Origin: Alphaproteobacteria bacterium
GTDB taxonomy: Bacteria > Pseudomonadota > Alphaproteobacteria > UBA828
Length of the DNA: 64,000 nucleotides
Direction of reading: 5' to 3'
Assembly: GCA_965214705.1 (NCBI GenBank)
Contig: OZ243972.1
Span: 1,248,001-1,312,000, forward strand
Positions 30,078 through 60,550 of this stretch are shown one piece after another (within the stretch, counting starts at the first letter, position 1; each line of letters opens with the position of its first letter). Position numbers and translations under genes: made by a program. Under the pieces are notes generated by a model. It was not told where the DNA came from. It was given only the letters and a program-made list of their open reading frames with translations, and did not search any database.

Positions 30078-32375
30078 TCAGCCTCCGGTTCCGCTGCGCC
30101 CGGCGCGCGCACCCACTCGGACCGCGCCCAGCCGGGTCATGCCTGCGACCGCGGTCCCGCCGGTCCGCTCGCCGCCGTCCTCCCCGGCGCCGGCGCGTCC
30201 GCCGATCCAGTCGAGGACGGCGCCCGGCAGCAGGTCGATCAGCTTGAAGGACGCGTTCATCAGCCCGTAGGCCACGATCACGTAGAGCGCGAGCATGGCG
30301 AGGAACCCGACGGGGCCGAGCCCGGCGCTCGCGCCGGCGTCCCGCATCTGCGGCAGCCAGACCTGGTTGAACAGCCCGATCGCGGCCAGGAACACGAAGT
30401 AGCCGAGGATGAGGCCCAAGAGCATCAGCGCGGGCCGCAGCACCAGCGCCGGGAGGAACAGCCAGCCTTGCCGCGTGGCCTGTACGGTGAGCCGGTTCCC
30501 GTCCTCGCGGGTGACGTGGGCGGCTGCGAACACGGTGACGGCCAGAACCGCGACGGCCACGTTGAGGATCCAGCCGAGAATGCCGAACAGGAAGCGGATG
30601 AAGGGGAGCGCAGGCAGCACGTAGGCCAGGACGGCGCCCGCGACGATGAGGAGTCCGAGCAGGGTCGAGACCAGGGCGTCCGAGACCTGCCAGGCCGATT
30701 CGAAGACGTCGAGCCCCTTGCCGATGAAGGGGATGGATTCGAGCAGCCCCGAGCCGGTCGCGGCGCCCATGAGCGCCACGACGGCGGCGAGCGCGGCGTT
30801 CAGGAGGCCGTGGCCCAGCGCGGCCAGGTCGGCGATGGGGTTGCCGCTGTCGGCGAGGATGACGGAGTCCAAGTCGATGAACTCGAGCAGCCCCGACATC
30901 ATGCCGCGGCTGTCGCCGTCCGACGAAGGGAGCGCGCCGGCGCCGGCGTTGGCGGCCGACAGCAGCATCGGGTGGTAGCGGCTGGAGCGGGCGAGCTGCG
31001 CCGCCACACCTTTGACGGCAGCGTCTGCCGAAGGGACCCACTCGTCGAGGCTCGGCACCGGAAGCGCCACCGAGGGCACGTTGTGGGCGGCGGCCTGGAA
31101 GAGGCCGACGCGATGCGCGATGGTGTTGAAGAAGGACGCGGCGGCCATCCAGGACGCCTCGCGCGCGTCCTCCGCCACCACCCGCGCGAGGGTCTCGCGC
31201 TCCTCCGAGGCGGCTTGCGTCAGCGCGTCGTCGAGCACCCTCGAATAGGCGTCGGCCAGGTCCTCACCTGCCAGCAGAGCGTCGATGTCGGGCAGCGGGC
31301 GGCCGTAGAGCGGGGTCCCGGGCACGTAGTGGGCGGCGAGGCCGGCGGCGATCGAGCGGATGGCCGGCAGCAGGCCGGTGAGCGCGCGGCGATGACCCTC
31401 GGCCGCGAGGCCCGGCGCGCCGTCCGCCTCGAGCCCTGTGAAGCGGATCGAACCGCACATGCCGTCCGGCATGCCGCGGCCGTCCCCGTCGTAGCCAAGC
31501 GTCACCCCGCCGTCGTCCTCATCTTCGTCGATCTCGACGTAAGGGTCGTCGCCGGCTTGGGCCGCGCTCTCGTTGGCGGCCCGGGCGCAGGTCTCGGCAA
31601 TCAGGGTGCGGGAGATCGCGGCGCGCCAGAGCGCCTCGCGGGGGCGCGGCACGATCGGCCGGCTCTCGGCCAGCGCCTCTTCCGAGAACGGCTTCCAGAC
31701 GGCGTTGGCGAAGTCGCCGCCGAGATGGGCGAGGCCCACCACCGCGTGCTGCGCCCCGTTGAGCCCGCCCGGCAGCGGCGCCATCAGGGCGACGGCCGCG
31801 ACGATGCGCACGATCGCCCAGGCGCCGAAGCCGAAGCGGCCCTCGCGGGCGGTGTCGACGGTGCCCGCGGCGGCGTGCCAGACCAGCAGGAAGCCGGCGA
31901 GCACCAGCACGCCGGCGTTGAAGGCGAACAGCATGTCGCCCACGGCGGACGACCGGTCTCCGGCACGAGTGTCCGCGCCGAGACCGCCCAGGAAGGCCAG
32001 CACCTCGCGCGTCAGGCTGTCGGTGTCGGCAAAGAGGCCGCGATCGATGGTCTGTGCCGACGCAGGATCGGGCGGCGGGATCGCAGCCACGGCGAGACCC
32101 GCGGCAGCGAGCAGCAGGACGAGCCAGAGGAGGCCGGGACGGAACCGCCCGGTCCGTGGACCGGCCACGACGCGCGGATCTTCCGCTCCGTCACTGACGC
32201 CCGCCGCCGGGCCGCCGCTAACGGCCTCTCCTTCGTCTCCGGCGTCCGTCCCGGCAGGCGACGGCCCCGGCCGGCACGCCAATTCGATCAGCGCGCGCAG
32301 CACGGCCGCCGACCGCAGCACGGCCGCGAGCGGCCGGCCGAGCTCGAGGGCGAACAGGAAGCGGAGCGGGCGCAT
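30078..32375 (-). CDS. dotA: DotA/TraY family inner-membrane protein
   Basis: FNAGVLV...GTVDTAREG, VRIV...MAPLPGGLNGAQ, WMAAASFF, YVLPALPFIRF, LVLRPALMLLG, SFKLIDLLPGAVLDWIG. Start is approximate. Confidence 0.85.
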   Translation of the reverse strand: MRPLRFLFALELGRPLAAVLRSAAVLRALIELACRPGPSPAGTDAGDEGEAVSGGPAAGVSDGAEDPRVVAGPRTGRFRPGLLWLVLLLAAAGLAVAAIPPPDPASAQTIDRGLFADTDSLTREVLAFLGGLGADTRAGDRSSAVGDMLFAFNAGVLVLAGFLLVWHAAAGTVDTAREGRFGFGAWAIVRIVAAVALMAPLPGGLNGAQHAVVGLAHLGGDFANAVWKPFSEEALAESRPIVPRPREALWRAAISRTLIAETCARAANESAAQAGDDPYVEIDEDEDDGGVTLGYDGDGRGMPDGMCGSIRFTGLEADGAPGLAAEGHRRALTGLLPAIRSIAAGLAAHYVPGTPLYGRPLPDIDALLAGEDLADAYSRVLDDALTQAASEERETLARVVAEDAREASWMAAASFFNTIAHRVGLFQAAAHNVPSVALPVPSLDEWVPSADAAVKGVAAQLARSSRYHPMLLSAANAGAGALPSSDGDSRGMMSGLLEFIDLDSVILADSGNPIADLAALGHGLLNAALAAVVALMGAATGSGLLESIPFIGKGLDVFESAWQVSDALVSTLLGLLIVAGAVLAYVLPALPFIRFLFGILGWILNVAVAVLAVTVFAAAHVTREDGNRLTVQATRQGWLFLPALVLRPALMLLGLILGYFVFLAAIGLFNQVWLPQMRDAGASAGLGPVGFLAMLALYVIVAYGLMNASFKLIDLLPGAVLDWIGGRAGAGEDGGERTGGTAVAGMTRLGAVRVGARAGRSGTGG
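31955..31974 (-). repeat. 15-bp family unit in dotA (ADTRAGD)
   Basis: GGTCTCCGGCACGAGTGTCC. Confidence 0.8.
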
Positions 32376-32380
32376 GGCGT

Positions 32381-33574
32381 TCAGTTGGCGCCCGCCGCCG
32401 GGTTGGCGAGGCCGGGCAGGCGCCGCATCTCTTCCACACCCAGCGCGAGCGCGGCAGCGTCGATGGCGCCCCGCCGCTCGTCGGTGCGGTAGCGCTGCCA
32501 GTCGAGCATGAGCGAAACCGCCTGGAGCGTGACCAGCTCGCGCAGCAGGTTCTCGGCCGACATCCCCTGGAGGCGCACGAACCAGTCGGGGTCCTCGAAG
32601 CGGCGGCTCGCGAGCAGCTCGAGGAGCTCGTAGCGGCTCACCGGGTTCCCGGCATCGCGCCGTGATATCCCGGCAACGGCCGCAGCCCATGCGCCGAGCG
32701 CGGCGCCGGGCGCCCTGAGCGAGCGGGCGCCGGCGAAGTAGTCGGCGGCCAGCGCCGTCCTTGCGTCCGCCGCGCGCGCGAGCAGCACGCGGCGGCGCTC
32801 GCGCTCGGTATCGGCGGAGGCGAGCGGCGGCGGGTCGTGCACCACGGGCGCGGCGAGATTGCGCGAGAGCTCGATCGCCGAGCGCAGCTCTTCCCCGCTC
32901 GCGAAGGTGCGGCGGTCGAACAGCGTGCCGGCCCTGAGATCCGCGCCGTGCATGGCGTGCACGCCCCGGCAGACACTCGTGCCGAAGAGCGCGGGGTCCT
33001 CGCCGGCGCGTGCCGCGTTGCAATAGGTCTGCGTGAGGGTCTCGAAGCGAGCGGCGTCGCCGGCCGCTGCGCCGGGACGGTCGACTACGGCCCGGTCGCC
33101 CGTGATCCGCCCGGTCTCGGTAATGGCGGCGCTCGCCCTGGCGCGGGCGCTTGCCGCGCCCGTCGCGGCGAGTCCCGCGAGTCCGGTGATCCCCTCGCAG
33201 GCGCCCCGGGCGGGGCGGCGCGCCCGCATGGCCTCGGTCTCGGCCGCCTCGCGCGCGATCTGCGCCTGCAGCCTGGTCTGCGAATCGAGCGCGCCGGTGA
33301 TCGCCCTGGCGCTCTGGGCGGTGTAGCCCGAGAGCTGTCCGGTCTGGAGGCGGAGCGCCTCGACGATGGCGCGCTCCATCTCGTCGATCTCTTGCGTGAG
33401 ATCCCGGATGACGCGGCTCGCCTCGCGGCGGTCGTCGTCGGTACGGTCGCAGGCGTGAGCCAATGCCTGTGCCGGCGCCAGGAGCGCAGCCCCCAGGAGC
33501 ACGGTCGCGGCCAGGGCGGCCCCGGCCGACCCGCTGGTGCCGAGGCCCGAGGGTGTGTAACGTCTCGCGCTCAT
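32381..33574 (-). CDS. Secreted conjugation protein, TraW (IncI)-like
   Basis: Signal peptide and coiled coil; C-terminal SRYELL...RRFEDPDWF...ENLLRELV; lies just upstream of dotA/traY. Confidence 0.55.
   Translation of the reverse strand: MSARRYTPSGLGTSGSAGAALAATVLLGAALLAPAQALAHACDRTDDDRREASRVIRDLTQEIDEMERAIVEALRLQTGQLSGYTAQSARAITGALDSQTRLQAQIAREAAETEAMRARRPARGACEGITGLAGLAATGAASARARASAAITETGRITGDRAVVDRPGAAAGDAARFETLTQTYCNAARAGEDPALFGTSVCRGVHAMHGADLRAGTLFDRRTFASGEELRSAIELSRNLAAPVVHDPPPLASADTERERRRVLLARAADARTALAADYFAGARSLRAPGAALGAWAAAVAGISRRDAGNPVSRYELLELLASRRFEDPDWFVRLQGMSAENLLRELVTLQAVSLMLDWQRYRTDERRGAIDAAALALGVEEMRRLPGLANPAAGAN
32971..32988 (+). repeat. 15-bp family unit in the traW-like gene (FGTSV)
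   Basis: AGACACTCGTGCCGAAGA. Confidence 0.7.
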
Positions 33575-34146: not shown

Positions 34147-34603
34147 CGCCCGCCCCGTCATCGGCCCCCGGGTCCTCGGCCCGAGGGTCCTCGGCCCGAG
34201 GGTCTCCCGCCTCGGGTTCTCCGGCAGGCTCCCCGGCGCCGTCCGCATGGCCCGCGCCGGCCTTCGGCCTGAGCACGTTCACCACGCCCTGCGGGCCGGC
34301 GACGATGACCTCCGTCACCTTCCGCCTGATGCCCTTGCCGTCGTCGTACTCGCGGGTGGCGAGCCGGCCCTCGACCAGCACCGGGGAGCCCTTGCGCACC
34401 ATGTCCTCGACCGGCTTGACCGCGCCGCCGTAGACGACGATGCGGTGCCAGTCCGTCTTCTCGACCGCAGCCCCGCCCTCGCCCTTCCAGCGCCGCGTGG
34501 TGGCAAGCGTGAACCAGGCGGTCCTCTCGTCCTCCGACAGCTTGCGCCCCTCGGGATCGCGGCCCGCATGGCCCAGCAGCGTGACCCTGTTCATGTGCAA
34601 CAT
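34139..34603 (-). CDS. ssb: Single-stranded DNA-binding protein
   Basis: MNRVTLLGHAGRDPE, TDWHRIV, KGSPVLVEGRL. The tail is built from repeat units (GDPRAEDPRAEDP) and lacks the usual DDIPF end. Confidence 0.9.
   Translation of the reverse strand: MLHMNRVTLLGHAGRDPEGRKLSEDERTAWFTLATTRRWKGEGGAAVEKTDWHRIVVYGGAVKPVEDMVRKGSPVLVEGRLATREYDDGKGIRRKVTEVIVAGPQGVVNVLRPKAGAGHADGAGEPAGEPEAGDPRAEDPRAEDPGADDGAGDE
34161..34207 (-). repeat. 3 x 15-bp family array in the ssb tail
   Basis: TCGGCCCCCGGGTCC TCGGCCCGAGGGTCC TCGGCCCGAGGGTCT. Confidence 0.85.
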
Positions 34604-34621: not shown

Positions 34622-37600
34622 TCAGGGTTGAGATCGGGCCGGCCCGTTCGGGACCGGCCGGGGTGAATCCGATGTCTCGTGCGCGGCCGCGCGCGCGACC
34701 TCCTCCGCGAGCCGGTCGAGCACGGCCTCCTCCGACGCCGCACGTCCGGTGTCCGGCGAATCCGGACGCGCGAGCTCGCCCTCGATACGCGGCCGAGCGG
34801 TGCCCTCCGGGAACGCCCGTGCCAGCGCCGCCCGGGCGCGGGCTGGCGGCAACTGGCCGTAGAGCCGTCTCCGCAGCGCGACGTCCGCCGGGCTGGTGGT
34901 GAGCGCCCAGAGCTCGACCGGGCCCGGCGTGTTGACGACGAGCTGCTCGAAGCGCCCGCCCTGGCCGGCGGCGATCAGCAGCGCCGGCGCCCCGTCCCGT
35001 CCGGGTCCGGTGAGCCGGTAGCGGATGACGTCCGAGAGCGTGTCGCTCAGCCCGAAGGCGGCCGCGAGCGCCTCGGCTTCCTTCGCCTTGCCGCCGGAGC
35101 CCAGGATCCAGTATCGGTTGGCGAGCTCGGCGAGCGCGCCGCCGAAGTCGTCGAGCCGCTGCGAGGCGAGTGCGAGGCGCACCCGGAGCTTCCGGGCCTC
35201 GCGCACGTCGCGCTCGACCTGGGCGCGCGCGGCCGGCGCGCCGGCGGTGCGGTGGAACTCGTCGTAGCAGAGCCGCTTCGGCGATTCGCGGATGTCGCGC
35301 AGCCTGGCCGCGTGCCAATCCCGGTAAGGCTCCGGAATCGCGCCGAGCGCGTCCTCGCCGATCCACCAGTGGCGGGTCAGCGCGTGGCGCGCGAGCAGAT
35401 AGAAGGCGGCGGACTGCCGGTCGGCCTCGGCCGAGCCCTGCGGCGCGACCTCGGCGAGATCGATCGCCGCGAGCCGCGCGCCGCCGACGTCGAAGGCGGT
35501 AGGAGAAAACATCACCGGCCAGTCGCCGGAGAGAGCCGTCAGGATGCGGATGAAGGCCTGGGTGACGCTCTCGCCGCCGCTGCCGTATCTCGCATCCCCC
35601 ACCAGCCCCTGAACGGCGGGCTCGCGCGCGCTCGCCAGCAGGTCGGCGAGGACCGGCACCGCGTAGCGCTGCGCCCGCGCGGCCGCATCGATGGCGCCCG
35701 CCTCGAACAGCAAGTCCACCACCTCCCACCAGAGCGGGCTCTCGGGGAGGCGGAGGCCTGACGCCGCGATCGCGGCGTCCACGTCTGCGTCGCGGCCTTC
35801 CGTGTAAGCGTGGGGCTCGGCTCCGGCCACCTTGTCCGAGCGCATCTCGTAGGCGCCCGTCAGCGCCGGCCCCAGCAGCTCCCGCATGCCGTCCGGCACG
35901 CCGGCGGCGGAGCCTCGGGCCGGACACTCGTGCCGCAGACCCGCCGGCGTCACCATCAGGCCGAGCAGGTTCATCAGGAAGGCGCGCTCGGCAGGCAGCG
36001 GCGCGCGGCAGCCGAGCTGCGTGTCGCAGGGGTTGATCGCATGCTCGGGCGTCATGCGGAGCGGGAACCAGCCCGCCTCGTGGCGGCGGCCGGGCGGCAG
36101 GGCCTCGCGGACCAGCGAGATCAGCCCGGAGGACGACGGGCCGATGTCGATCACCGCGGCCAGCGGAAGGCTCGCCTGGCCGCCCTGCAGCGAGAACGCC
36201 AGGCCCAGGGCGTTCATCAACACCGACTTGCCCTGGCCGGGCAGGCCGTAGATCAGCTCGAAGCCATAGTCGCCGCCCTCTGCCGGGGCCAGCGGCAGAG
36301 GCTTGCCGTCGGGCGAGCGGAACAGGTGCGCGGCCTCCGCCCCGGAGGAGAGCCGCGAGAGCGGCGCGGGCCGGCTGACCGGGAAGAGGTGCAGGGCCTC
36401 GGACAGGGGGGCCAGGGCGGGTTCCGCGGTGGCGCCGCAGCAGAAGCCCGGGACCGAAGCGCAATAACTCTCCAGCGGATCGCCCGTGAGCGGCGTGAAC
36501 ACCGCCTCGCCCCAGCCCTCGGCCACCTGCTGCAGGCGGCCGAGGCGGACGGCGAGCGCCGTCTCTCCGTCTTCCGCGCCGACCCAGGTGAGGGTGCCTA
36601 AGCGCAGCCGGACGATGGCATGCGCGTCTTCGCCGAGCGCCGCGAGGTCCCGAAGCGCGTTGCGGGCGAGCAGGCTGTCCGACGACGAGAACGCGAGGAA
36701 GGAAGAGGCGACGCGGGAAACGGTCGTATCCAGGCGGTGCATGCCGCCGCCCTCGATCAGCAGCGAGAGGCGGCAGGGGAGGCCCGCGCCCGCGAGCCCC
36801 GCCATCAGCTCGGAGAACGGCCGGGCCCTGCGCGGCCCCAGCGACATGTCGAGCGCGCCGTAGAGGCGCCCGCCGATGCGGATGCCGCCGCCGGTCCGCT
36901 CGGGCTCGCGCACCAGCAGCTGCGGGGCGAGCGGCGGCGGGAAGGCGCCTGTGTCGGGCGGCTCGGTGAACCGCGCCGGCGCATCGTTGGCGCCGGTCAC
37001 CGGGCGCCAGTCGGATGCAGTCGAGGCCGCGCCGTTCACCATGCGCCGCATGAGGCGAAGCGCGTCCTCCTCCGGCAGCCTCCGGCCTTCGATCCCGGTC
37101 TCCGCGAGCACAGCCACGACCGCGTCGAGCAGCGCCTCGTGACGCGCCCACAGTCCTTCGAGCGCGAGATGAGGGCACTGCGCCTCACCGGCCTCGGGCA
37201 GCCAGTCCCTGAGCTTCCTGCGGAGCCCCTTGCGGTCCCGCTCCAGGCGGTCGCGCGGCAGCACGGAGGGCCGGGTCCAGCAGGCCAGCACCAGGGTCTC
37301 GGCCGCGATCAGCGGGGCCAAACGACGCGCCCGCTCGACCAGCAGGTCGTCGAGGTCCAGCCCGAGCCGGCGGGCCTGTCGCCGCGCGGCCTCGGCATGC
37401 GCCTCGGCGAGACCCCCGGCTTCGTCGGGCGCGCGCTCGAACACCATGTGGAGCGCATGGCCGGGATGGGCGAAGGCGGTGTTGAGCCTGAGCGCGGCGA
37501 CCTCCACGAAGCGGTCGAGCTCTTCCGCGCCCATCATCGAGCGGGTGCCGTCGAGACCGATCAGCGAGACCAGCGAGCCGTCGTGGCACACCAGCACGCC

Positions 37601-37728: not shown

Positions 37729-38181
37729 CTACAGCCTCGGCTTGAGGACGGTGTGGCTGCCGCCGTCGATGCCGAAGGTGTCGCCCAGCGCATTGATGAC
37801 GGCGGGTGCCGCGATCAGCGCGACGCCGATCAGGATGGCGATCAGGCCCGAACCGATGGTGGTCTGCTGGGGGTGGTCGACGTGGCGCTTCAGCTTCAGC
37901 AGTCCGAAGCCGACGATGGCGGCGCCGATGATGTAGAAGGCGATGGCGATCAGCCCCGGCACGGTCTCCAGGTCGCCCGCCGCCTCCTGGGCCATGTCCC
38001 CGAGGGAGACCGCCAGCGCCGGGCCCGTGCTCCAGACACTGGTGCCGGAGAGCCACGCCGCGCCCATCAGGGCGGCCGCGACGGGGCCGGGGGACGGAAC
38101 CGCCCCCACACTCGGTGAACGGGGACTCTTCAACTCCAGCAGGATGCGCCGGACGTTTCGCGGGAGGGCTGCGAGGCTCAT
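37729..38181 (-). CDS. IcmD/DotP/TraR-like small membrane protein
   Basis: Two TM helices; YIIG...GLLKLKRH.DHPQQ...LIAAP; lies between icmC-like and icmB. Confidence 0.65.
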   Translation of the reverse strand: MSLAALPRNVRRILLELKSPRSPSVGAVPSPGPVAAALMGAAWLSGTSVWSTGPALAVSLGDMAQEAAGDLETVPGLIAIAFYIIGAAIVGFGLLKLKRHVDHPQQTTIGSGLIAILIGVALIAAPAVINALGDTFGIDGGSHTVLKPRL

Positions 38182-38783: not shown

Positions 38784-39873
38784 CGGGGGAGTCCTTCGTA
38801 CCCGGCGGCGCGGCGAACACCACCACCAGCTCGGTGTCGCGCGCGATACGCACGGTGGGCCGGTCCGGCGCGTTCTCGAGCAGCACGTCGCCGGCGGTGC
38901 GGGCCGCCGTGGCAAGCCCGGCATGGACCGCCTCGCGGGTCGACGACTCCAGACGCTCGTATCGGACGTCGTCCCCGATCACCACGGTCTGCGACGGCCG
39001 GGAGAGGGCGGTCAGGAAGCCCTCGGCGAAGCGCACGGCCGACGGCAGCAGCACGCGCTCGAACCAGTGGCTGTCGACCTCCCCGTCCACCCCGTAGCAG
39101 GCGCAGTCCAGCCCGGCGGCCCAGGCATCGATCGCAAAGCTCCGCCCCCTGTATTCGACGCGGCCGAGCCGCAGCACCAGACGTTCGCCCACCAGCGTGA
39201 ACGCGCCGGAGGCGACGGCTCCCGCAAGCGGCGGCTCCAGTAGCTCCAGCAGCACCGGGCCGGGGTAGTCGGAGTCGACGGCATACATGGTGCGGGCGTA
39301 GAGCCCGGTCCCGGCCGCGATCCGCGGCAGACCCTCGGGCCGGAGAATGGACGCGGCCGCCGGCGGCTCCCGTCCGGCCTCCGGCAGAGGATCCCTGCCC
39401 TCGACGGCAGCGGGATCGCGGGCGGCCGCCGGATAGCGCACACGCACGATCTCGGGCGGCCGCGTCCAGGCCTCGATCAGCACGCCGACGAGACCCTCGG
39501 GCCGCGGGTCGCCGTGGCCCCGGTCCTCCCGGCCGGAAGCGGGAGCACTTTCGGGCCGGCGCCAGGCCTCGTAGGCCGGCTGCGGCGGAGTCGGCGCGCG
39601 GGCCGGCTCTCCTGCGGACCCGGAGGGCGCATCGGCACCGCGCGCCGTCGACGGCCCCTGGAAGACCGGCAGGAAGGTCTCGCCGGCCTCGCGGGCCGCA
39701 TCGAGGCGCTGCCGGTCGCGCTCGTCGAGCGTGTCGCGGTAGGCCGGCGGCACGGCGTCCTCGGGGTCGAGCCTGAGATCGCGGTTGTCGGGGACCTGCG
39801 CCAGGCCGGGACCGGCGAGGCCCGCCACCAGCCATACGGCCAGCAGGACACTCATATGTATAACGCCCGACAC
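38776..39873 (-). CDS. dotG: DotG/IcmE/TraO (VirB10-like) protein
   Basis: AGTGLYA...VDSDYPGPV...GEVDSHWFERVLLPSAVRFAEG...PTVRI. Confidence 0.78.
   Translation of the reverse strand: MSGVIHMSVLLAVWLVAGLAGPGLAQVPDNRDLRLDPEDAVPPAYRDTLDERDRQRLDAAREAGETFLPVFQGPSTARGADAPSGSAGEPARAPTPPQPAYEAWRRPESAPASGREDRGHGDPRPEGLVGVLIEAWTRPPEIVRVRYPAAARDPAAVEGRDPLPEAGREPPAAASILRPEGLPRIAAGTGLYARTMYAVDSDYPGPVLLELLEPPLAGAVASGAFTLVGERLVLRLGRVEYRGRSFAIDAWAAGLDCACYGVDGEVDSHWFERVLLPSAVRFAEGFLTALSRPSQTVVIGDDVRYERLESSTREAVHAGLATAARTAGDVLLENAPDRPTVRIARDTELVVVFAAPPGTKDSPDG
39329..39504 (+). repeat. Two single 15-bp family units in dotG (39329-39346, 39490-39504)
   Basis: AGACCCTCGGGCCGGAGA and GAGACCCTCGGGCCG, both read as RPEGL. 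Confidence 0.75.
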
Positions 39874-39909: not shown

Positions 39910-40926
39910 TCATTGCCGGTCTCCCACCCTGAGGGTGTCCTGCCAGTCGGCATCCGTTCCCGAGTCCGAGAGCGCCAGCCGTTTCTCGCGGCCCCCGTCG
40001 CTCACCAGGACGAGAGGCGTGTCGGCGAGGCGGTAGGCCCAGCGGCCGCCGGGTCCGCGCTCCGCCGCCAAGGGTCCCGGCGAGAGCAGGTGGGCGCGGG
40101 TCAGCAGCAGCAGGTCGCCGCCCCGGCGCCAGGCGCGGTCCCCGGCCGTGCCGCCCTCGATCGCCAGACGCTCGGCATCCGCAGGCACGGCGCCGCCGAG
40201 AAGTGCGAGCAGAACCGGATCGCCCGCATGGAAGCCGCGCGGGGCGGCGAGAACGCCCGGATCGGCGTTGGGCCCGGGAACGCCGAGGCGGATCTCCACA
40301 CGGAAGTCCGCGTCGGCGCCGGTGCCGCGCAGGCTGGCGACCACCGGCTCCGCGAGGCTCACGAGCTTCACCACCGCGTTGCCGCGCTGGTAGGCGGCGG
40401 CCGGCGCGAGATAGAGCAGATGGCTTGCCATAGGGCTGCCACCCGACACCTTCCCGCCGGTGTCGCTGTCTGCGCCCGGCGGCAGGAACCGGCGGTCGAC
40501 CAGCGCCTCCTCGATCGGCCATGGCGCGCCGGTGGAATCGGTGAACGAGAGGACGGTGACGTAGCCGCGCCTGAGCGCGATCTCCGGGACACTCGTGCCG
40601 GAGATCCCGCCGCCCTGCGCGCCGTCCAGCCGCACACGGCGGATGCGCCCCTGCGGCGCCTCCCCCGCGCCCCTTGCCGTGGCTTCCTGCGTCTCGCGCA
40701 GGATGCGCCCCAGAATCTCGATCTGCTCCTGCGTGAAGGGCAGCGCCGCCCGGCCCTGGCGGGCCGCGTCATCGTCGGTGAGCGCATGGGCGGACCAGGC
40801 GTCGACCGTCCGCTCCAGCGGCACCCCTGGGCCCCCAGGCGCCTTGTCCTGCGCCGCAGCGGGAGACGCGGCGAGCGTAGCCAACAATGCCGCAAGCGGC
40901 AGGGACGAGAGCGTTTGCATCCTCAT
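39910..40926 (-). CDS. dotH: DotH/IcmK/TraN outer-membrane core protein
   Basis: Start MRMQTLSS with signal peptide; PFTQEQI, GYVTVLSFTDSTGAPWPI, GNAVVKL, GPNA. In frame with upstream dotI, with no stop between them. Confidence 0.82.
   Translation of the reverse strand: MRMQTLSSLPLAALLATLAASPAAAQDKAPGGPGVPLERTVDAWSAHALTDDDAARQGRAALPFTQEQIEILGRILRETQEATARGAGEAPQGRIRRVRLDGAQGGGISGTSVPEIALRRGYVTVLSFTDSTGAPWPIEEALVDRRFLPPGADSDTGGKVSGGSPMASHLLYLAPAAAYQRGNAVVKLVSLAEPVVASLRGTGADADFRVEIRLGVPGPNADPGVLAAPRGFHAGDPVLLALLGGAVPADAERLAIEGGTAGDRAWRRGGDLLLLTRAHLLSPGPLAAERGPGGRWAYRLADTPLVLVSDGGREKRLALSDSGTDADWQDTLRVGDRQ
40588..40604 (+). repeat. 15-bp family unit in dotH (SGTSV)
   Basis: GACACTCGTGCCGGAGA. 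Confidence 0.78.
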
Positions 40927-41610
40927 GTCCCCGCTCCGCGGCCCGAGGGTCTCTGGCCCGAGAGGTCTCTGGGCCGAGGCTCCCTTGCCGGCGATGAGCT
41001 GCTCGATGGCGATCCCGGCGGGGCGCTCGTCGAGCGGCACCCGCATCACCAGCACCTGCGCGACCAGCTCCTGGCTGACGCGGCGCGTTCCGGCCGAGAA
41101 GGTGACCAGCAGGGGGAACTCGACGGCCCAGCCGACGCGGCCCGCGAAGAAGCGCGTGTCCACGATCACAGGCGCGCCCTGGGCCACCGCCGAGGCCACC
41201 TGCAGGTTGCCGCGCAGCCGGTCGAGGAAGAGGCTCTCGTCGAGGCCCTTGAGGAACGACTCGTAGCCCGAGTCCGTAAAGTACTCGCGGATGCCCGACA
41301 GCCTGAGCCGCCAGTCGTGGTGGCCGAGGGTGAAGGCCTCGGTCACCGCCGACACGGTCCAGTTCCTGAGCGCCGCGTCCGACATGATCGGCTCGTCGAG
41401 CGGGGTGAGGCGCACCAGCCGCCCGTCCGGGGTCGCGGCAACCGCGATGTAGACCGTCGAGTGCATCCAGACGTAGCCCGCAAAGGCGCAGGCCGTCAGC
41501 ACGTTGCAGGCGAGCAGCCAGCCGGCCGCCCGGCGCCAGCCGTGGTGCTGGTCGCGGTGGAACGCGAATCTCTTGGCCGCCGCGCGCACGGCCTGCAGGC
41601 GGCTACTCAT
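40927..41610 (-). CDS. dotI: DotI/IcmL/TraM protein (reads through into dotH)
   Basis: Start MSSRLQ at 41610; TM; ATPDGRLVRLTPLDEP, W...AVTEAFT, YFTDSGYESF, GIAIEQ. Confidence 0.82.
40940..40979 (-). repeat. 15-bp family array at the dotI/dotH junction (one unit 16 bp)
   Basis: GGCCCGAGGGTCTCTGGCCCGAGAGGTCTCTGGGCCGAGG. Confidence 0.8.
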
Positions 41611-42595: not shown

Positions 42596-43098
42596 GGCTT
42601 GCCTCCTCCTTCCGCCGGAGCCGGCAGCCGGTGGGTCACGACCAGCGCCGTCCCGCCCTCGGACCGTGCTGCCGCCGGCGCATGCGGCAGATGCGACAGG
42701 CCCCGGAACAACGCCTGCACCGCGTCCATGAACCCGCCCTCGAAGGCGGCCGCTCCGTCCAGGCGCCAGCCGCGGTCGGTCAGGAACAGCACCTCCACGT
42801 CGGCCCGAACGCCCCAGCGCGCCAGCACCTCGCGCAGCCTCTCTCCGGCATGCACACGCCAGACACTCGTGCCGGAGACACTCGTGCCAGAGACACTCGT
42901 GCCGGAGACATCCCGGCCGGGAACGGGGGCGGGCTCGATGTCCGCCGCGGCGGCGCCTGTGCTCCCGTCCCGTGCGTCCGCCTGGCGCGCTGGCACCTCC
43001 GCCTGCGCGGCGTCCGTCTCCGGCGGCACGTAGCGGAACCCGGCCGAGGCCGGCGCCGCCGACACCGCGAGAAGCAGAACCGTGAGTGCCGCCCCCAT
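42592..43098 (-). CDS. TcpQ-domain (PilL-like) secreted protein
   Basis: Start MGAALTVLLL; WRVHAGERLREVLARWG...FEGGFMDAV. Confidence 0.7.
   Translation of the reverse strand: MGAALTVLLLAVSAAPASAGFRYVPPETDAAQAEVPARQADARDGSTGAAAADIEPAPVPGRDVSGTSVSGTSVSGTSVWRVHAGERLREVLARWGVRADVEVLFLTDRGWRLDGAAAFEGGFMDAVQALFRGLSHLPHAPAAARSEGGTALVVTHRLPAPAEGGGKP
42861..42910 (+). repeat. 3 x 15-bp array in the TcpQ-domain gene (VSGTS x3)
   Basis: (AGACACTCGTGCC[G/A]G)x3 AGACA. Confidence 0.92.
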
Positions 43099-43502
43099 CA
43101 CCCGAAGTCGGTGAAGCGGCGCAGGCGCGAGGCGTGGAGCGCCCGGCGGCGCCCGGCGCTCAAGCCGCGCAGCGCCCGCACGGCGGCGCGGAATCGGTAG
43201 CCCCGCGCTTCCGCCGCCCGGCAGCCCAGCATCGCCGCGACGACCGCCGCCGTCGTCCACCAGGTCGGCAGGAACAGCCACGGCACCGCCAAAACCAGCA
43301 GGCGGGCGTCGAAGACCCACGCCCTTACCGGGCGCATCGAATCCCGCCACGCCACAGGGGACCCTCGGGCCGGAGAACTCCCTGGTCCAGGGGACCCTCG
43401 GGCCGGAAAACTCCCTGGTACAGGGGACCCTCGGGCCGGAGAACTCCCTGGTACAGGGGACCCTCGGGCCGGAGAACTCCCTGGCACCTCGTTCGTCTTC
43501 AT
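43098..43502 (-). CDS. icmT: IcmT/TraK family protein with a repeat-derived N-terminal extension
   Basis: WRDSMRPVRAWVFDAR...GY.F.AA.R.LR; preceded by 4 x (VPGSSPARGSP). Confidence 0.8.
   Translation of the reverse strand: MKTNEVPGSSPARGSPVPGSSPARGSPVPGSFPARGSPGPGSSPARGSPVAWRDSMRPVRAWVFDARLLVLAVPWLFLPTWWTTAAVVAAMLGCRAAEARGYRFRAAVRALRGLSAGRRRALHASRLRRFTDFG
43355..43487. repeat. Tandem array of 4 x 33 bp (CAGGGGACCCTCGGGCCGGAGAACTCCCTGGTA)
   Basis: Units start at 43355, 43388, 43421 and 43454, with at most one or two mismatches and no spacers. Confidence 0.95.
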
Positions 43503-51830: not shown

Positions 51831-53584
51831 GCGGACTCTCCGGCTTCTTCGGGCACCGGGTCGGCCTGGGCCTCGTGCTCCCCGGCGCCGCCCTTGAGCA
51901 GCGCGTCGAAGGGGTCGACGGCGCCCTGCCTCACCAGGGCGCGGATGCGCACTCCGATCGGGACGCCGCCCAGCTCGCTCCGCCACCAGGCCCACGCCCC
52001 GAGCGGGTCGCCCTTGCGCACGAAGCGCAGGTAGCCCGCGTCGGGGCGGATGGTCTCGCAGATCGCGGTCTGGCCGAGATAGCCGTTCCAGGCCCGGGCC
52101 GAGACCTCGCCGCCGTCCGCGCGCCGGCACTCGGGGCAGCCCTCGGCATTCCTGAAGCGCAATCCCTCGAGCCCGCCGAGGCGGGCAGCCAGCCCCTCGG
52201 GCACGGCGCGGCCGCCCGCCGGACGGTCCAGCGCGCAGGCGCCGCAGAGCCGCGGCAGCAGGGTCTGCTTCATCAGCAGCGCCACGTTGCCGGGCTTCGC
52301 CACCTCGGCCGCGCCCACCCCCATGTCGATCAGCCGGAAGGGGATGGCGTTGGCGTTGTGGACATGGATGGTGGTCCAGATCTGGTGCCCGGTGTCGACG
52401 CACTGCAGCACCTGCCGGGCGGCGTCGGCGTCGCGGATCTCGGAGACCATGCCCGACGCCGGATGCACCCGGCAGAAGTGCATCAGCGCCTGGCTGAAGT
52501 GCCCGGCGCGGGTCTCGCCGGCGCCGGCCGTCGGCACCGCGATCTGCAGCGCGCCGGGAATGCGGTACTCGACCGGGTCCTCCAGGGTGACCAGGTTGAG
52601 CTGGCCCGCCATCTCGGCCATCTGCAGCGCGAGGTTGACGGCGAGCGTGGTGGACTTGCCGTCGCCGGCGCGGCCGCCGATGAAGACACCGCCCTGCATC
52701 GCCATGCGGATCTCGGCGAAGAGCGCGGCCTCTTTCGCCGAGAAGCCGAGGCCCTCGAGCGTCGTGCCGGGGTCCAGGCGGTCCGTGTAGAAGAGGCGGG
52801 CGAAGAGATGGTCGGCGTCGGGGTCGTGGGGTCCGCGCTCGCAGCGCAGCGCCGAGATGCCGCCCGGCAGCGGCACCGGGCCGCCGGCGCGGATGGAGAA
52901 GCCCTGAAAGGAGGCGCGGCGGTAGCTGGTCTGGGACGAGCCCTCGTCCTTGCAGTGGAAGAGGAAGCCCATCGCCTGGCGGCCTTCCTCGGCGGTGAGC
53001 GGCGCACTCAGCGGCAGCTTGCGGTCGTTGACGATGGCGAAGACCCTGCAGGCGTCGCGGCCCTGCTCGAAGACCACGTCGCTCGCCTTCGCGGCTGCGG
53101 CGTCGGCGAGGAGCCGGCGCAGGCGGTCGGCCGCTCCGCCGCCGGCGGCCGTGTTCTCGCCTTCCTGCGCGCGCCAGAGCGCGGCGATCTCCTCCAGCGC
53201 CGCGCTCTCCTCGGCGAGCGCCGGCGGGATCGCGCCGGACTCGCGCAGCGCCACCAGGTCGAGGCGCAGCCGGTCGTCGGCCTCGTAGCCCTCGGCGATC
53301 AGGCAGCGCCCGTCGGTGAACACCGCACAGAGCCGCCGGAAGCGGGCATCCATCGCGCTGCTGCGGATCGGCAGGTCGGAGGCCCGAGGGTCTCCGGCAC
53401 GACTGTCCGCGGCACGAGTGTCTCCGGCACGAGGGTCCGTTCTCGGCGCCGGACCCGTCAGCCCGGCCAGCGCCGGCCCGCCCCGGCCCCCGCCGAGCCG
53501 GAACATCGCGGCCGCGGCCTTCGAACGCAGGCGCGTGCGCATGCGGTTGCACCGGAGGCCGAGCCAACGGCCGAGCCGCCTCAC
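51827..53584 (-). CDS. pilQ: Type IVb pilus assembly ATPase (PilQ/GspE-like)
   Basis: ASDV, GRAGDGKSTT, TLEDPVEY, SEIRD, TGHQIWTTIH, Q.L.PRLC..C, GC.EC. GTG start inferred. Confidence 0.87.
   Translation of the reverse strand: MRRLGRWLGLRCNRMRTRLRSKAAAAMFRLGGGRGGPALAGLTGPAPRTDPRAGDTRAADSRAGDPRASDLPIRSSAMDARFRRLCAVFTDGRCLIAEGYEADDRLRLDLVALRESGAIPPALAEESAALEEIAALWRAQEGENTAAGGGAADRLRRLLADAAAAKASDVVFEQGRDACRVFAIVNDRKLPLSAPLTAEEGRQAMGFLFHCKDEGSSQTSYRRASFQGFSIRAGGPVPLPGGISALRCERGPHDPDADHLFARLFYTDRLDPGTTLEGLGFSAKEAALFAEIRMAMQGGVFIGGRAGDGKSTTLAVNLALQMAEMAGQLNLVTLEDPVEYRIPGALQIAVPTAGAGETRAGHFSQALMHFCRVHPASGMVSEIRDADAARQVLQCVDTGHQIWTTIHVHNANAIPFRLIDMGVGAAEVAKPGNVALLMKQTLLPRLCGACALDRPAGGRAVPEGLAARLGGLEGLRFRNAEGCPECRRADGGEVSARAWNGYLGQTAICETIRPDAGYLRFVRKGDPLGAWAWWRSELGGVPIGVRIRALVRQGAVDPFDALLKGGAGEHEAQADPVPEEAGESA
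53381..53439 (-). repeat. 4 x 15-bp array in the pilQ N-terminus (DPRAGDTRAADSRAGDPRA)
   Basis: GGCCCGAGGGTCTCC GGCACGACTGTCCGC GGCACGAGTGTCTCC GGCACGAGGGTCCG. Confidence 0.88.
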
Positions 53585-58865: not shown

Positions 58866-60550
58866 AGCGGTTCTCCCGGGCTGCCGGGGCGTTCCCCTGT
58901 ACCAGGGAGCTCTCCTGTACCAGGGAGCTCCCCTGTCTCGGCGATGCCCAGAGGCGCACCGATCTCGGCTTTCACCAGCAGAACCTGCTCGGTGCGCGAC
59001 AGCGCCCCGCGCCGCGCGCCGCCGGGAAACGGCACGTCCTCGGAGAAGGTCCCGGAGCTCTCCGACTCCGCGCGGCGGGTCGAGAACCCGGTCACCAGCA
59101 GGGTCTCTCCCCGGCGTATCCGCTGGGTCACCTGCACCGCGCGGCTGGCGTAGGCCGGGAGCTGGATGGTGGTGCCGCCGCCGGAGACCTCGCGGAACGC
59201 CGGACGGTCCCGCAGGCTCGCGAAGAGCCGCACCAGCACCTCGCCCGGCCCGGTGATGCGCGGGATGTAGCTCGCGGCGAAGCCCGACGAGACCGTGCCC
59301 GGCACGATCTCGGTCTGCGCGATGCCGTCCCCGGCCGTGGTGCGCTGCTCCTTGACGTAGGCTTCCTTGTAGAGCTCGAAGAACTGCGCCGGCTTGCCGT
59401 TGAGCGAGGGGATGTCCGCCGACAGCACCCGCGACACCGTCCCTGCGCTCGACAGCGCCCGCACCGTTGCCGCGAGCGTATCGCTCACCGCGGCGGAAGG
59501 CCTGACGATCGCCACCGCTTCCGGCGTCACCGCGAGTTGAGCGGACGTGCCGAACAGCTCCTTCACCAATGCCGCCAGGCCGAGCCCGTAATCGGCTTCG
59601 CGCTCCATCCGCACCGCGTAGACGTGCACCGAGAGCGTGACCGGCCGCAGCACCTCTCGGTTGAGATACCTCAGGAAGCCCCGCACCCGGTGGATGTCGC
59701 GCGGCGTGCCCGTGACGAGCAGCGAGGCATTGGACGGCGCTGCCGTCACCGCCGCGCCCGGATCCACGAGGGCCGCTGCCTGCGCCTCGATCTCGGGCCA
59801 GGGGTCGTACTCGGTCTCGGCCGCGATCGACTGCCGGGTCAGCACGCCGCCGCCCTCCTCGCCGCCCGACGCCGCATCGTCGGTCGAGCCGGAAGCCCGG
59901 TAGCGCTGCGTGCCGGCGAGCGCATGGATGCGGAACACCACCGCCTGCCGGCGCACGATCTCGACGGCGCCGCCCTCGCCGTCGTAGCGCCAAACATAGC
60001 CGGGCGGTTCCGTCCAGGCGTCGAGCAGCGCATCGAGCGGGCCGGTCCAGACGCCGCCGTCGGGCGACAGACCGTCGACGCCGAAGCCGGCGGGAGAGTC
60101 CGCGGGGGAGGTATCGCCCCCCGCCGGAGGCGATCCGGCGAAGCGCACCGGAATCCCCGTCGCCGCCTCGATCCGCCGCGCCAGCACCGAAGCCTCGCCG
60201 ATCCCGGCCAGCGGCAGAGTGACAGCATCCGGCTGCAGGAGCTGCGCCGGCAGGGTCGTCTCAGCCGCGTGCTCCTGCGTCGAGAGCCCGAGCCAGGGGC
60301 GTTGCTCGATCACCCGGATCGCGGAGAAGCGCGGCCGCTCCGGCGCCTCCCTCAGCGCCCGGACCTCGCGCGCCGCCGCGTCGGTCTCGCTGCGCGCTTC
60401 TTCCCGGACCGCCGATCCGCAGCCCGACAGAAGGACCGCGCAAAGGATCGTCAGCACCAGCTCCCGGCCCAGGCGCCGATGGCGGCAACCGAACCCGCGG
60501 CGGCCCGTCAATGGGGTCTCGATGAGATCGGAAAACCGCGCTGCCGACAT
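58862..60550 (-). CDS. pilN: Type IVb pilus lipoprotein secretin (PilN/BfpB family)
   Basis: Lipobox LSGC; WTGPLDALLD, LLVTGTP, LNGKPAQF, PGTVSSGF...PRI, IQLP, GETLLVTGF. Confidence 0.85.
   Translation of the reverse strand: MSAARFSDLIETPLTGRRGFGCRHRRLGRELVLTILCAVLLSGCGSAVREEARSETDAAAREVRALREAPERPRFSAIRVIEQRPWLGLSTQEHAAETTLPAQLLQPDAVTLPLAGIGEASVLARRIEAATGIPVRFAGSPPAGGDTSPADSPAGFGVDGLSPDGGVWTGPLDALLDAWTEPPGYVWRYDGEGGAVEIVRRQAVVFRIHALAGTQRYRASGSTDDAASGGEEGGGVLTRQSIAAETEYDPWPEIEAQAAALVDPGAAVTAAPSNASLLVTGTPRDIHRVRGFLRYLNREVLRPVTLSVHVYAVRMEREADYGLGLAALVKELFGTSAQLAVTPEAVAIVRPSAAVSDTLAATVRALSSAGTVSRVLSADIPSLNGKPAQFFELYKEAYVKEQRTTAGDGIAQTEIVPGTVSSGFAASYIPRITGPGEVLVRLFASLRDRPAFREVSGGGTTIQLPAYASRAVQVTQRIRRGETLLVTGFSTRRAESESSGTFSEDVPFPGGARRGALSRTEQVLLVKAEIGAPLGIAETGELPGTGELPGTGERPGSPGEPL
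58891..58937. repeat. Tandem 18-bp repeat (about 2.5 units, CCTGTACCAGGGAGCTCT) at the pilN 3' end
   Basis: Encodes TGELPG x2-3; reverse complement of the 18-bp half of the 33-bp unit at 43355. Confidence 0.85.

Follow-up and report, generated by a model that had tools for sequence, protein, structure and literature searches.

RPE, intragenic REP and MIRU are in-frame selfish repeats; the 15-bp family analysed here is a new variant of this kind, and its unit was found described nowhere in print, as far as the literature search reached. The unit has the consensus GAC(C/A)CTCG(G/T)GCCGGA, with two main variants, GACCCTCGGGCCGGA and GACACTCGTGCCGGA, neither of which contains a stop codon in any frame (by inspection, as originally claimed). 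The family is real: in the window (the whole stretch of 64,000 nucleotides that was analysed, to which all coordinates refer) the two variants gave 24 and 26 matches at up to 2 mismatches, against 1.03 and 0.46 expected, and none of 100 dinucleotide shuffles reached either count. Merged, they make up 33 units in 17 arrays that span 31,959-53,437, with 0 units at the same threshold in 1-31,958; the original prediction had seen none, by eye, in the 26.8-kb chromosomal half. Of the roughly 18 sites predicted, 16 hold a unit (up to 2 mismatches) within 18 bp of the expected position, and the repeat that closes the proposed interval, 31955-58937, belongs to a second, 18-bp family. Tandem Repeats Finder picks up the arrays independently (e.g., 42453-42507, period 15, 3.7 copies, 100% match; 43354-43484, period 33, 4 copies). 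The genes of the unit-bearing region are all on the minus strand and the units are present in both orientations, as had been claimed.

In the element of the window (E1), the single unit at 31959..31973 (minus strand; GACACTCGTGCCGGA), read as DTRAG in a DotA/TraY-family gene, is a clean 15-bp insertion that is missing in the related element E4 and in the four other aligned elements covering the site, the native, empty site being G^GAC (the caret marks the joint). Other single units are on the plus strand, antisense to their genes: 32972..32986 (GACACTCGTGCCGAA; FGTSV), in a TraW-like gene, faces a 15-bp gap in E4; 39330..39344, an exact copy (LRPEGL), lies in the TrbI-like gene outside the TrbI domain; 39492..39506 (GACCCTCGGGCCGCG; PRPEGL), also in the TrbI-like gene, is common to L010, L012 and L014; and 40588..40602 (SGTSV) is inside the DotH/IcmK domain envelope, at a site where E4 has 2 units, L008 3 and L013 1. 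The unit at 38035..38049 (plus; GACACTGGTGCCGGA), which runs antisense to a small TraQ-like ORF, had been missed in the earlier list; it is present in E1, L008 and L010, absent from E4 (15-bp gap), L012 and L013, and represented in L009 by a more diverged 15-bp copy, below the calling limit of 2 mismatches. Two listed sites did not hold a full unit: 33544 is an 11-mer, ACCCTCGGGCC, within a partial or degenerate unit (33513..33554, minus) in a 40-bp segment private to E1, and 39918 falls in a diverged 18-bp-type relative (39915..39940, minus; 15-bp unit not matched at up to 2 mismatches) that lies directly upstream of a start codon and provides a GGGAGA Shine-Dalgarno-like motif.

Arrays show a similar variety of settings. 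About 3 units (34157..34204, minus) lie in the C-terminal tail of the element SSB, at about residues 134-143 (the OB fold takes up residues 4-101), in a 75-bp segment missing from E4; E2 and E3 likewise have units in the tail of their SSB. In the ORF of the large IcmB/VirB4-like ATPase, two antisense units with a 13-nt offset (35910..35937, plus; LRHECPARGS), 30 bp in total, lie where E4 and five further elements have a gap of 30 bp and L013 has one unit. At the DotI-DotH junction (40937..40983, minus; about 2.6 units, RPLGPETLGPR; 31-bp gap in E4) the DotI frame of E1 continues into the start codon and signal peptide of DotH. Three arrays lie in the DsbG-like gene: about 4 mixed units at the C-terminus, directly upstream of the next start codon (41615..41681, minus; 60-bp gap in E4, filled in 6 of 8 elements with varying copy numbers); three units read as RTLGPETFVPETLGPE (41822..41870, minus; 0 to 5 units among homologues, some with a DTRAG reading); and 3.7 perfect antisense units directly after the signal peptide (42453..42507, plus; LRPEG three times, 0 to about 6 copies among homologues). 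An antisense array of 3.3 units (42861..42910, plus; SGTSV three times) is directly N-terminal of a TcpQ domain; six of the eight elements have 1-3 units at this site. Four compound 33-bp units (43354..43484, plus; SPARGSPVPGS), each a 15-bp unit fused to an 18-bp unit of the second family (CTCCCTGGTACAGGG type), lie at the N-terminus of a small ORF, opposite a 114-bp gap in E4; L013 has inverted units at the same site. Three units read as ETLVPETLGPETLVPE (46431..46479, minus; common to 5 of 8 elements, 1-6 units) are in the linker between prepilin-peptidase-like and TcpQ domains of a protein that also carries one unit with a degenerate neighbour (46821..46853, minus; DTRAG; 3 units in E4, 2 in L009). 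Finally, about 4 units read as DPRAGDTRAADSRAGD (53374..53439, minus) precede the T2SSE ATPase domain in a PilQ-type pilus ATPase, on its N-terminal side, and the E4 array is one unit shorter.

Alignment of eight related elements yielded 36 sites, of which 17 are private to one element and 0 are occupied in all eight. The gaps are clean (15, 30, 45, 60, 75 and 114 bp) and the empty sites read native G^GA or G^GAC; the arrays are followed by GA in 105 of 142 cases and preceded by a purine in 134 of 142, and the register of the unit (GAC...GGA) is constant, in either orientation, next to the native GA. These alignments indicate that a whole unit, or a few units, arrive at places that are empty in sister elements, and that the arrays appear to gain and lose copies afterwards. 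Local slippage cannot explain the dispersal, as had been argued, because almost half of the sites are private and the empty ones contain no seed beyond G^GA. Orientation is sense in 95 units and antisense in 60. Neighbouring arrays share neither variants (P = 0.76) nor orientation (P = 0.13) above chance, so a simple spread from the nearest copy is unsupported. Private units are presumably young, yet they are only slightly nearer the consensus (0.63 mean mismatches) than units at sites present in 4 or more elements (0.76; sites in 2-3 elements, 0.98).

The 7.9-Mb genome has 36 exact copies, and every one is inside five conjugative elements (171 kb, 2.2% of the DNA), two of them IncI/Dot-Icm-like and three unrelated and F-like, and 258 kb of DNA with at least 72% GC elsewhere in the genome contained 0 matches. 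With up to 1 mismatch, 83 copies were within the five elements and 9 elsewhere, against 0 and 2, respectively, for the reversed motif. A search of 20 further genomes from the genus recovered the unit in 15; outside the genus it was at background level. Public runs yielded metagenome contigs only; among those with a double unit, 16 of 18 encode relatives of these elements' genes, and on rare occasions a unit on a metagenome contig lies in an ordinary gene (for a hydantoinase in one case, an anti-sigma gene in another). The family is thus not specific to one element, contrary to what had been supposed.

Five of the six frames are translated at sites with an unambiguous coding frame on both flanks (GC3 and substitution periodicity, not an annotation, served to infer the frames): DTRAG/DPRAG, ETLVP/ETLGP, SGTSV/SGPRV, LRPEGL/LRHEC and SPARGS. 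The sixth, RPSGRR/RHSCRR, which the original prediction had also counted as read, was confined to gene junctions or ambiguous sites and accounts for 2 of 395 unit-like pentapeptides in 120 homologues; this Arg/Cys-rich frame is almost never used. The DNA is conserved and the peptide is not, as had been proposed, since homologues of the DsbG-like family differ at one site between an ETLGP and a DTRAG reading, and some alignment sites carry opposite orientations in different elements. Thirteen E1 arrays lie in proteins that match a family, and about 11 of them fall outside the domain envelopes (by the author's own comparison of coordinates, not a scripted count), in line with the predicted preference for linkers and termini, and some copies are outside reading frames, at gene junctions. 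The visible copies are those that keep the frame and lie in tolerant places (linkers, protein ends and gene junctions), and the peptides are therefore by-products.

The best explanation, with a probability of about 0.5, is that the unit is a DNA-level, self-propagating insertional minisatellite of conjugative elements, filtered by selection for frame and tolerant positions. New copies would be templated by units already present on the same or a co-resident element, through a short template switch (copy-choice) in which the unstructured GGAGA spacer would act as microhomology, most plausibly during single-stranded replication or repair of the element in rolling-circle transfer; the copy number would later drift via slippage, and the weak dyad of the unit (positions 3-5 versus 8-10) may promote pausing or folding of the strand. 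Copying from resident units is suggested by rare sub-variants common to different arrays of one element (23 of 697 pairs versus 14.8 +/- 3.7 with shuffled labels, P = 0.03). E2 and E3 are about 95% identical overall and share 7,963 bp at 99.96%, a tract that suggests active recombination between co-resident elements and counts in favour of the same explanation. The nearly constant register argues against it: many registers would be expected from a generic microhomology switch, and a single one rather from an enzyme that cuts at a defined site. Only an assumption (single-stranded replication, closed gene pool) accounts for the confinement to conjugative elements, and one F-type element of the same genome (F4) is free of repeats. 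The pattern points to an undescribed way for mobile DNA to acquire short repeats.

An unlikely alternative is that the unit is a miniature mobile element served by a dedicated enzyme, which would cleave single-stranded DNA at the GGA^GAC joint and transfer the 15-nt segment to another G^GA. The constant register and consistent GA flank would fit such an enzyme, as would the small dyad with its co-varying positions, and possible movers are an HUH nuclease of relaxase type encoded by the elements and some transfer-module protein that has escaped recognition. TrwC-family relaxases are linked to each of the genome's eight type IV secretion loci (36 TrwC matches genome-wide). According to the available text of PMC3264647, a 17-bp target of TrwC from plasmid R388 (the nick site and one hairpin arm) is enough for strand transfer and integration, a size class to which the 15-18-bp units also belong. 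However, the frequent occurrence of both orientations misfits an enzyme confined to the transferred strand, transfer should be disrupted by dozens of functional nick sites in its operon, the genome has 0 matches to a Y1/RAYT transposase, and no oriT was located for comparison with the unit. Moreover, the F-type element F4 has zero repeats despite its TrwC relaxase, coupling protein and SSB. Nor was a reverse transcriptase or polymerase gene specific to repeat-bearing elements found, of the type that had been suggested as the writer: the genome's reverse transcriptases are mostly group II intron-like, with a distribution that does not follow the elements, and a dnaE2 cassette is on one element only. 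No gene family divides repeat-bearing from repeat-free elements, except for a weak hint concerning an RdfS-like HTH gene (HTH_17).

This gene stands first in the transfer operon of the seven loci with repeats and was undetected at F4, a distribution that favours a third, quite improbable reading, in which the units are selected binding sites, arranged as a grid over the transfer genes, of a protein of the element (the RdfS-like HTH, an FseA-like activator or a ParB-like clamp) that would mark, silence, activate or organise the region. It would agree with the confinement to conjugative elements and the sharing of one unit by two unrelated element types of one genus, and the available text of PMC12409273 offers a possible precedent, a ParB-like CTP clamp with long-distance action on an ICE. 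Positions 4 and 9 of the dyad co-vary in a complementary manner (A-T 76, C-G 56 and G-C 3 of 155 units; 0.205 versus 0.078 in shuffles), which could reflect a selected structure or binding site instead of neutral DNA. On the other hand, the HTH domain of E2 is no nearer to those of E1/E4, which share its unit, than to those of I3/I4, which have other units; the sites are inside genes, not promoters, as well as in the hydantoinase and anti-sigma genes, and insertion of whole units is an odd route to binding sites. Between the two mechanisms originally offered, insertion fits better than a grid, because of the high turnover, the lack of any conserved position and the coexistence of several unit families (at least two in one element).

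It is very improbable that the units act in mRNA as small hairpins affecting stability, processing or ribosome pausing in any orientation or frame. Their independence of both would agree with this, as would the 4/9 co-variation and the 5-bp GC stems and 3-5-nt loops of the 18-bp relatives, but no position is conserved, the dyad of the 15-bp unit has only 2 nt at its centre, which is insufficient for a loop, and the variable stem pair of the 18-bp family (9-15) is paired in 13 of 29 distinct units, being mismatched about as often. Two arrays were folded on both strands and four more on the gene strand; seven of these eight stretches did no better than dinucleotide shuffles (z -1.23 to +0.83), the exception being the 33-bp array at 43354..43484 (z = -2.6). 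Selection as a flexible protein linker module, with DNA similarity as a side effect, is scarcely credible and contradicted by the frame data, since one DNA unit gives five unrelated peptides, a single site is read in two frames among homologues and some junction copies are not translated, despite the location of most copies in linkers, tails and junctions and the richness of the peptides in Pro, Gly, Thr and Glu.

Related IncI-like elements bear 18-bp relatives instead of the 15-bp unit, composed of a short GC hairpin and a GGAG/GGAAC spacer; they share its plan, so the process appears to be general to this element pool and not tied to one sequence. The repeat that closes the predicted interval (58893..58936, minus; 2.4 copies of TCCCCTGTACCAGGGAGC, detected by Tandem Repeats Finder; 36-bp gap in E4) is of this second family, also present as arrays in L019 and in two further MPF_I elements of the genome.

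The 15-bp units of the window are real and constitute an insertional minisatellite, defined at the DNA level, that conjugative elements carry. At ≤2 mismatches, the threshold used for unit detection, the two variants have 24 and 26 matches in the window, where dinucleotide-preserving shuffles of the same sequence predict 1.03 and 0.46, and none of the shuffles approaches the observed counts. Pooled, the variants amount to 33 units in 17 arrays that span positions 31,959-53,437; the most frequent 11-mers of the window are k-mers of the unit, and the arrays are recovered independently by Tandem Repeats Finder. The original prediction had listed 18 sites, of which 16 contain the unit; site 33544 holds only a partial unit, site 39918 only a diverged relative, and a unit site at 38035 was missing from the list. 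The repeat-bearing region has a GC content of 73-77%, and the first 28 kb of the window 66-71%. Array length ranges from 1 to 6 units among 116 arrays in ten elements (62 singles, 27 doubles and 23 triples). A further hairpin-type repeat family is found within the operon at 38199-38269, the junction of two TraQ-like ORFs, where a 17-bp repeat in 4.3 copies contains small perfect hairpins (GATGC-NNN-GCATC); E4, the paralogue of the window's element (E1) in the same genome, lacks 51 bp of it (3 x 17, a multiple of 3).

Across the genome (67% GC) a scan found five dense unit clusters, the GC content of each being 72-75%. Five conjugative elements, adding up to 171 kb (2.2% of the genome), account for all 36 exact units, and the chromosome proper contains none. 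Allowing one mismatch, 83 matches are inside the five elements versus 9 outside (0 versus 2 for the reversed motif), and at ≤2 mismatches the 111 matches outside are at control level (93). No match with ≤1 mismatch occurs in 258 kb of other genome DNA with a GC content ≥72%, consistent with a restriction of the motif to conjugative elements. The unit had been called element-specific, a description that does not hold, as it is carried in this genome by five elements of two unrelated conjugation types. E4 and E1 are 75-84% identical at the nucleotide level, and E2, E3 and E5 are F-type elements (MPF_F, with TraC, TraH, TraU, TraN, TrwC and an integrase) that share only ssb with E1 as DNA. A Pfam search of the genome identified four DotH and four TraC_F loci and no match to the VirB4 family; among these eight type IV secretion loci the 15-bp family is present at five, 18-bp families are present at I3 and I4 (the other MPF_I loci), and the F-type locus F4 has none. 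The transfer-module blocks of the five repeat-bearing elements (~20-40 kb each, 72-76% GC) exceed in GC both the rest of their own element and the host genome, in the two element types alike. The mobile load of this genome is very heavy, with 36 TrwC relaxase-domain matches and 57 reverse-transcriptase matches besides its type IV secretion loci.

When E1 and E4 are aligned, unit sites appear as clean gaps of 15, 30, 60, 75 and 114 bp, in both directions, surrounded by alignable coding sequence. An alignment of eight elements, in which some sites are ambiguous, gives 36 sites: 17 are private to one element, none is filled in all eight, and several have opposite orientations in different elements. 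F-type elements show the same presence/absence behaviour, and copy number at shared sites differs between elements. It had been predicted that the units are clean insertions and that slippage cannot account for their dispersal, and both claims are upheld by the alignments with orthologues, where empty sites are seen in related elements. Later copy-number change at shared sites is of the kind expected from a slippage-driven VNTR; the first copies are not, because private single units face clean gaps without any seed. In an age test, units found in a single element did not clearly match the consensus better than those at shared sites, and adjacent arrays are not clustered in variant or orientation, as nearest-neighbour spread would have it. 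Seven public runs, none of them listed as RNA, contain the sequence. In four runs from one study (mixed-community contigs), the only joint at an array, at 41614-41684, matches E4 sequence. Larger insertions without E1 counterpart are also present in E4 (C1:3464026-3471420), of 1336 and 828 bp at the window equivalent of 37053-37067 and of 492 and 2495 bp at that of 39305-39322; they sit in the VirB4-like and TrbI-like genes, the same insertion sequences recur in E3 and elsewhere, and E4 is probably transfer-defective.

At known empty sites the inserted block begins with G1 and ends with A15 of the unit, and the native sequence at the insertion point is G|GA or G|GAC. The flanks of 142 arrays have a purine before the array in 134 cases and GA after it in 105. 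This register and target rule is strong, not absolute, because a few insertion events use other microhomologies (GACC or CGYGCCGG). Gene junctions are favoured by arrays, the native Shine-Dalgarno motif GGAGA is identical to the spacer of the unit, and some arrays now provide the ribosome-binding site of the next gene. At 40870-41010 no stop codon interrupts the DotI frame of E1 in the repeat, so that it stays open up to the DotH start codon and signal peptide (…GKGASAQRPLGPETLGPRSGDMRMQTLSS…), and in E4 the DotI stop codon overlaps the DotH start codon; the two frames of E1 seem to have been fused by repeat insertion, gene frames being taken throughout from sequence and not from annotation.

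At the protein level the unit is read in unambiguous frames (those in which both flanks agree) as D(T/P)RAG, ETL(V/G)P, SG(T/P)(S/R)V, LR(P/H)E(G/C)L and SPARGS, with 95 units in sense and 60 in antisense orientation. The use of all six frames had been proposed; five stand at unambiguous sites, and the sixth, rich in Arg and Cys, does not, being found only at ambiguous junctions and in 2 of 395 unit-like peptides of the DsbG-like family. Arrays of E1 are mostly outside domain envelopes. The DsbG-like protein has 497 homologues, and the best 120 of them carry 0-10 unit-like pentapeptides (none in 12/120). Five insertion hot spots are visible in an alignment of 30 homologues, one of which has the sequence ...TLGPETFVPETLGPE... 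in part of the proteins and ...TRAGDTRARDTRAGD... in another part, and four proteins contain a single DPRAG inside an otherwise invariant stretch. The structure model built from the 30-sequence alignment supports no claim about loops, because its mean pLDDT of 39.5 makes it unusable.

Exact units were found in 15 of 20 further genomes from this genus, where they reach 33 copies and cluster on few contigs, in 2 of 28 genomes from other genera of the order (1-2 copies each) and in 12 of 400 genomes of a class-wide sample (1-2 copies each), a sample in which the reversed control gave a single copy in 10 genomes. Most relatives compared are metagenome assemblies, and the fetched DotI-DotH relatives are labelled as Rhodospirillales, Alphaproteobacteria or Defluviicoccus MAGs. 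Seven top-listed DotI-DotH relatives (best-segment protein identity 68-79%) have 8-31 units per ≤21.5 kb, and eleven others (50-82%), some of them equally GC-rich, have none; several of these repeat-free loci contain dispersed 18-bp families of their own. Scattered units in two same-genus genomes hit a TraN junction (four copies), a ParB_N protein, a TrwC relaxase and a strawberry-notch-like helicase, genes that are typical of conjugative elements, and 16 of the 18 metagenome contigs recovered with a double-unit scan encode relatives of the genes of these elements. In the remaining two of these contigs the unit is found in ordinary, non-conjugation genes: a hydantoinase/oxoprolinase that is 24 residues (SGTSVSGTSV...) longer at this point than its homologue in the window's genome (L047, 1075-1104), and a zf-HC2/TPR anti-sigma factor with about nine ETLGP repeats in its linker (L052, 4251-4280). 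The exact double unit has 0 matches in viral contigs, and a 1.9-kb query with five arrays retrieved only a spurious 46-bp match from PLSDB plasmids. No description of the unit was found in the main text of the openly accessible literature searched, in which no paper contains the exact unit strings.

Regarding how the units reach new sites, rare sub-variants are common to arrays of one element above expectation (P = 0.03), and E2 and E3, which are ~95% identical overall, have 7,963 bp in common that are 99.96% identical (~C1:1966687-1974649 versus C1:3026690-3034652), which indicates that co-resident elements have recently undergone gene conversion. Copying from resident units, together with exchange between co-resident elements, is therefore plausible, with template switching and a dedicated strand-transfer enzyme as candidates for the copying mechanism. 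A more ambitious alternative is that a dedicated activity of the elements themselves, or one met during transfer, writes short hairpin-plus-spacer units at G|GA in a fixed register, and that the arrays serve the elements. The activity could be a relaxase-like strand transfer, or it could reside in a protein of the IncI-like transfer module that is so far unrecognised. If true, such a sequence-writing system would belong to a new class, the arrays could be, for instance, self-marks, or loading sites that are recognised from one co-resident element to another, and it would explain why one unit is common to unrelated F-like and IncI-like elements of the genus while sister elements have other units. 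We consider it unlikely. A reverse transcriptase or recombinase co-occurring with the motif had been suggested and was not found among the candidates examined: Y1/RAYT proteins (PF01797) have 0 matches in this genome (98% complete), in a search that was positive in 6 of 14 control genomes, and reverse transcriptases do not track the elements. Their 57 genome matches are mostly identical group II intron-like copies that are scattered, with one weaker match beside E1 (C1:1344452) and none within E2, E3 or E5. The imuB-dnaE2 cassette was rejected as writer, being present on E1 only and absent near the other repeat-bearing elements, and the TrwC relaxase, the coupling protein and SSB do not discriminate, as they are present at the repeat-free F4 too.

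A set of protein-binding sites would fit the co-occurrence of an HTH_17 gene with the repeats (7 loci with versus 1 without), which is weak support for a predicted unit-binding protein; operators, iterons or parS sites keep conserved positions, usually in non-coding DNA, and here no site is universal and nearly half are private. As for structure in the unit itself, the two positions that distinguish the variants, 4 and 9, are partners in the dyad, and the pairs at these positions among 155 units are A-T (76), C-G (56), G-C (3) and others (20). Their covariation on 53 distinct units is 0.205, versus 0.078 +/- 0.020 in shuffled data and ≤0.044 for slid partners, which is suggestive only, because two master copies would yield the same pattern. 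The dyad has 4 pairs, is imperfect and leaves a 2-nt centre. A function as RNA hairpins was dropped as leading idea because, of eight stretches folded (two arrays on both strands and four more on the gene strand), seven are no stabler than shuffles. The 18-bp relatives combine 5-bp GC stems with a GGAG/GGAAC spacer; compensatory changes suggested by their Tandem Repeats Finder consensus were not upheld in single units cut at GAAC, and in one case a hairpin across the unit joint fits instead, in our reading. A protein repeat domain (e.g., pentapeptide repeats) can be dismissed, as one unit gives five different peptides and not a peptide conserved in one frame.

The closest parallels to this minisatellite are the RPEs and intragenic REPs, the MIRUs and the Borg repeats, each of which differs in a defining feature. 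RPEs are ~105-146 bp long according to a review that counts REPs among the smallest known repeats (PMC3184786), and intragenic REPs are described in Di Nocera et al. 2013 (PMC3733652) as GTAG/CGTC-tagged palindromes of 21-65 bp that form real hairpins. Like them, the units look selfish, are inserted in-frame in unrelated genes and tolerated as extra peptide, occur as singles, dimers or groups, and occupy different sites in related genes (PMC3733652). As with RPEs, they are in-frame DNA of unrelated genes whose orthologues are without it, although RPEs have ~100-150 bp with long palindromic arms, and the unit has 15 bp. REPs, as presented in the same text, are genome-wide and mostly intergenic, and the GTAG type accompanies RAYT transposases (PMC3733652), whereas the units are confined to conjugative elements of a genome without RAYT. 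Compared with the REP/REPtron hairpin of ~20-40 bp, the unit is short and its dyad weak; inspection of both variants on both strands shows neither a GTAG nor a CGTC tag, and head-to-tail arrays in a single register, unlike in RPEs or REPs, are the rule. MIRUs, which PMC3184786 describes after Supply et al. 1997 as intergenic repeats of 40-100 bp on the chromosome, resemble the units in being a dispersed minisatellite at many loci with variable-number tandem arrays, in lying at gene junctions of operons, where they are read through and overlap neighbour genes, and in having filled and empty sites with short direct repeats, with no mobilising enzyme known for either (PMC3184786). They differ in that the units have 15-18 bp, are mostly intragenic in both orientations and are found in conjugative elements only.

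Borg repeats, according to Schoelmerich et al. 2023 (PMC9879509), have their own unit per locus and are A-rich, and a local origin without external template is inferred by the authors. They share with the units their abundance in a mobile or extrachromosomal element, their virtual absence from the host chromosome, the maintenance of frame in ORFs, disordered segments, fast turnover and flanking partial repeats (PMC9879509), but here one unit (~70% GC) occurs at dozens of loci, in unrelated elements and different genomes, and empty sites are seedless. PARCELs, described in 2010 as 25-residue domains defined by protein profiles in ORFs of unknown function (PMC2996958), are likewise tandem intragenic repeats with DNA dyad symmetry, linked to mobile elements and dispersed through horizontal transfer and shuffling within genomes (PMC2996958); unlike them, the unit has no conserved peptide and its hosts are well-known conjugation proteins. 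Finally, strand transfer by TrwC works on a minimal 17-bp oriT target consisting of a hairpin arm and the adjacent cut site (Agundez et al. 2012, PMC3264647). The likeness is in size class (17 versus 15-18 bp) and in an enzyme family present on all these elements, although TrwC integrates whole transferred molecules, and is not known to scatter short units.

The units are smaller than REPs, and they were clearly inserted many times. Conjugation genes that are essential received them, as did genes of other, unrelated elements in the same genome, and yet the chromosome was spared. Intragenic short repeats are usually ascribed to slippage or known palindromic transposons. These elements have hundreds of filled and empty sites, many of them in the homologues of a single protein. 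They are thus a clean natural system for asking how short sequences get copied elsewhere in bacterial DNA, whether relaxases or the single-stranded intermediates of transfer cause this particular kind of mutation, and how disordered linkers, gene fusions and ribosome-binding sites originate in secretion machines. In practice, the repeats can mark this pool of mobile elements in metagenomes, and they are a caution for gene callers and assemblers.

All genes from ~27 to 61 kb of the window are on the minus strand and encode an IncI/Dot-Icm-like (MPF_I) conjugation apparatus and a type IVb pilus; the gene names given in the original prediction are broadly right according to domain searches. They include the coupling protein, DotA/TraY, a TraW-like protein, SSB, a large VirB4-like ATPase, two TraQ-like proteins, a TrbI-like protein, DotI, DotH, the DsbG-like oxidoreductase, TcpQ-like proteins, the DotB/TraJ ATPase, T4SS_TraI, a prepilin-peptidase-like protein, PilV (with the shufflon N-terminal region), PilS, the PilQ-type ATPase and a secretin. 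E1 extends past the window to ~C1:1,343,000, and this part, without units, carries defence-like cargo, an IS110 element, the imuB-dnaE2 cassette and the TrwC relaxase. The cargo (L053, C1:1309865-1323187) looks like a defence island and comprises an AAA/DUF4143 ATPase, a SNF2-type helicase with a NOV_C domain, a DUF1156 methyltransferase-like protein and a DUF499 protein with a Swt1-like HEPN domain. Beside the relaxase, at C1:1331242-1336502, genes for a Y-family ImuB-like protein and a DnaE2-like Pol III alpha subunit, with an adjoining unassigned ORF, constitute an error-prone polymerase cassette. At 60749-62673 two ORFs in different frames overlap: the FseA-like one, with a DNA-binding domain of the DUF2285/RovC type, extends over the start of the other, which has a C-terminal HTH_17 (RdfS-like) domain, and the GC-frame map shows two changes of coding frame in this stretch, an arrangement that we take to be reminiscent of the frameshift-dependent FseA of Mesorhizobium symbiosis islands.
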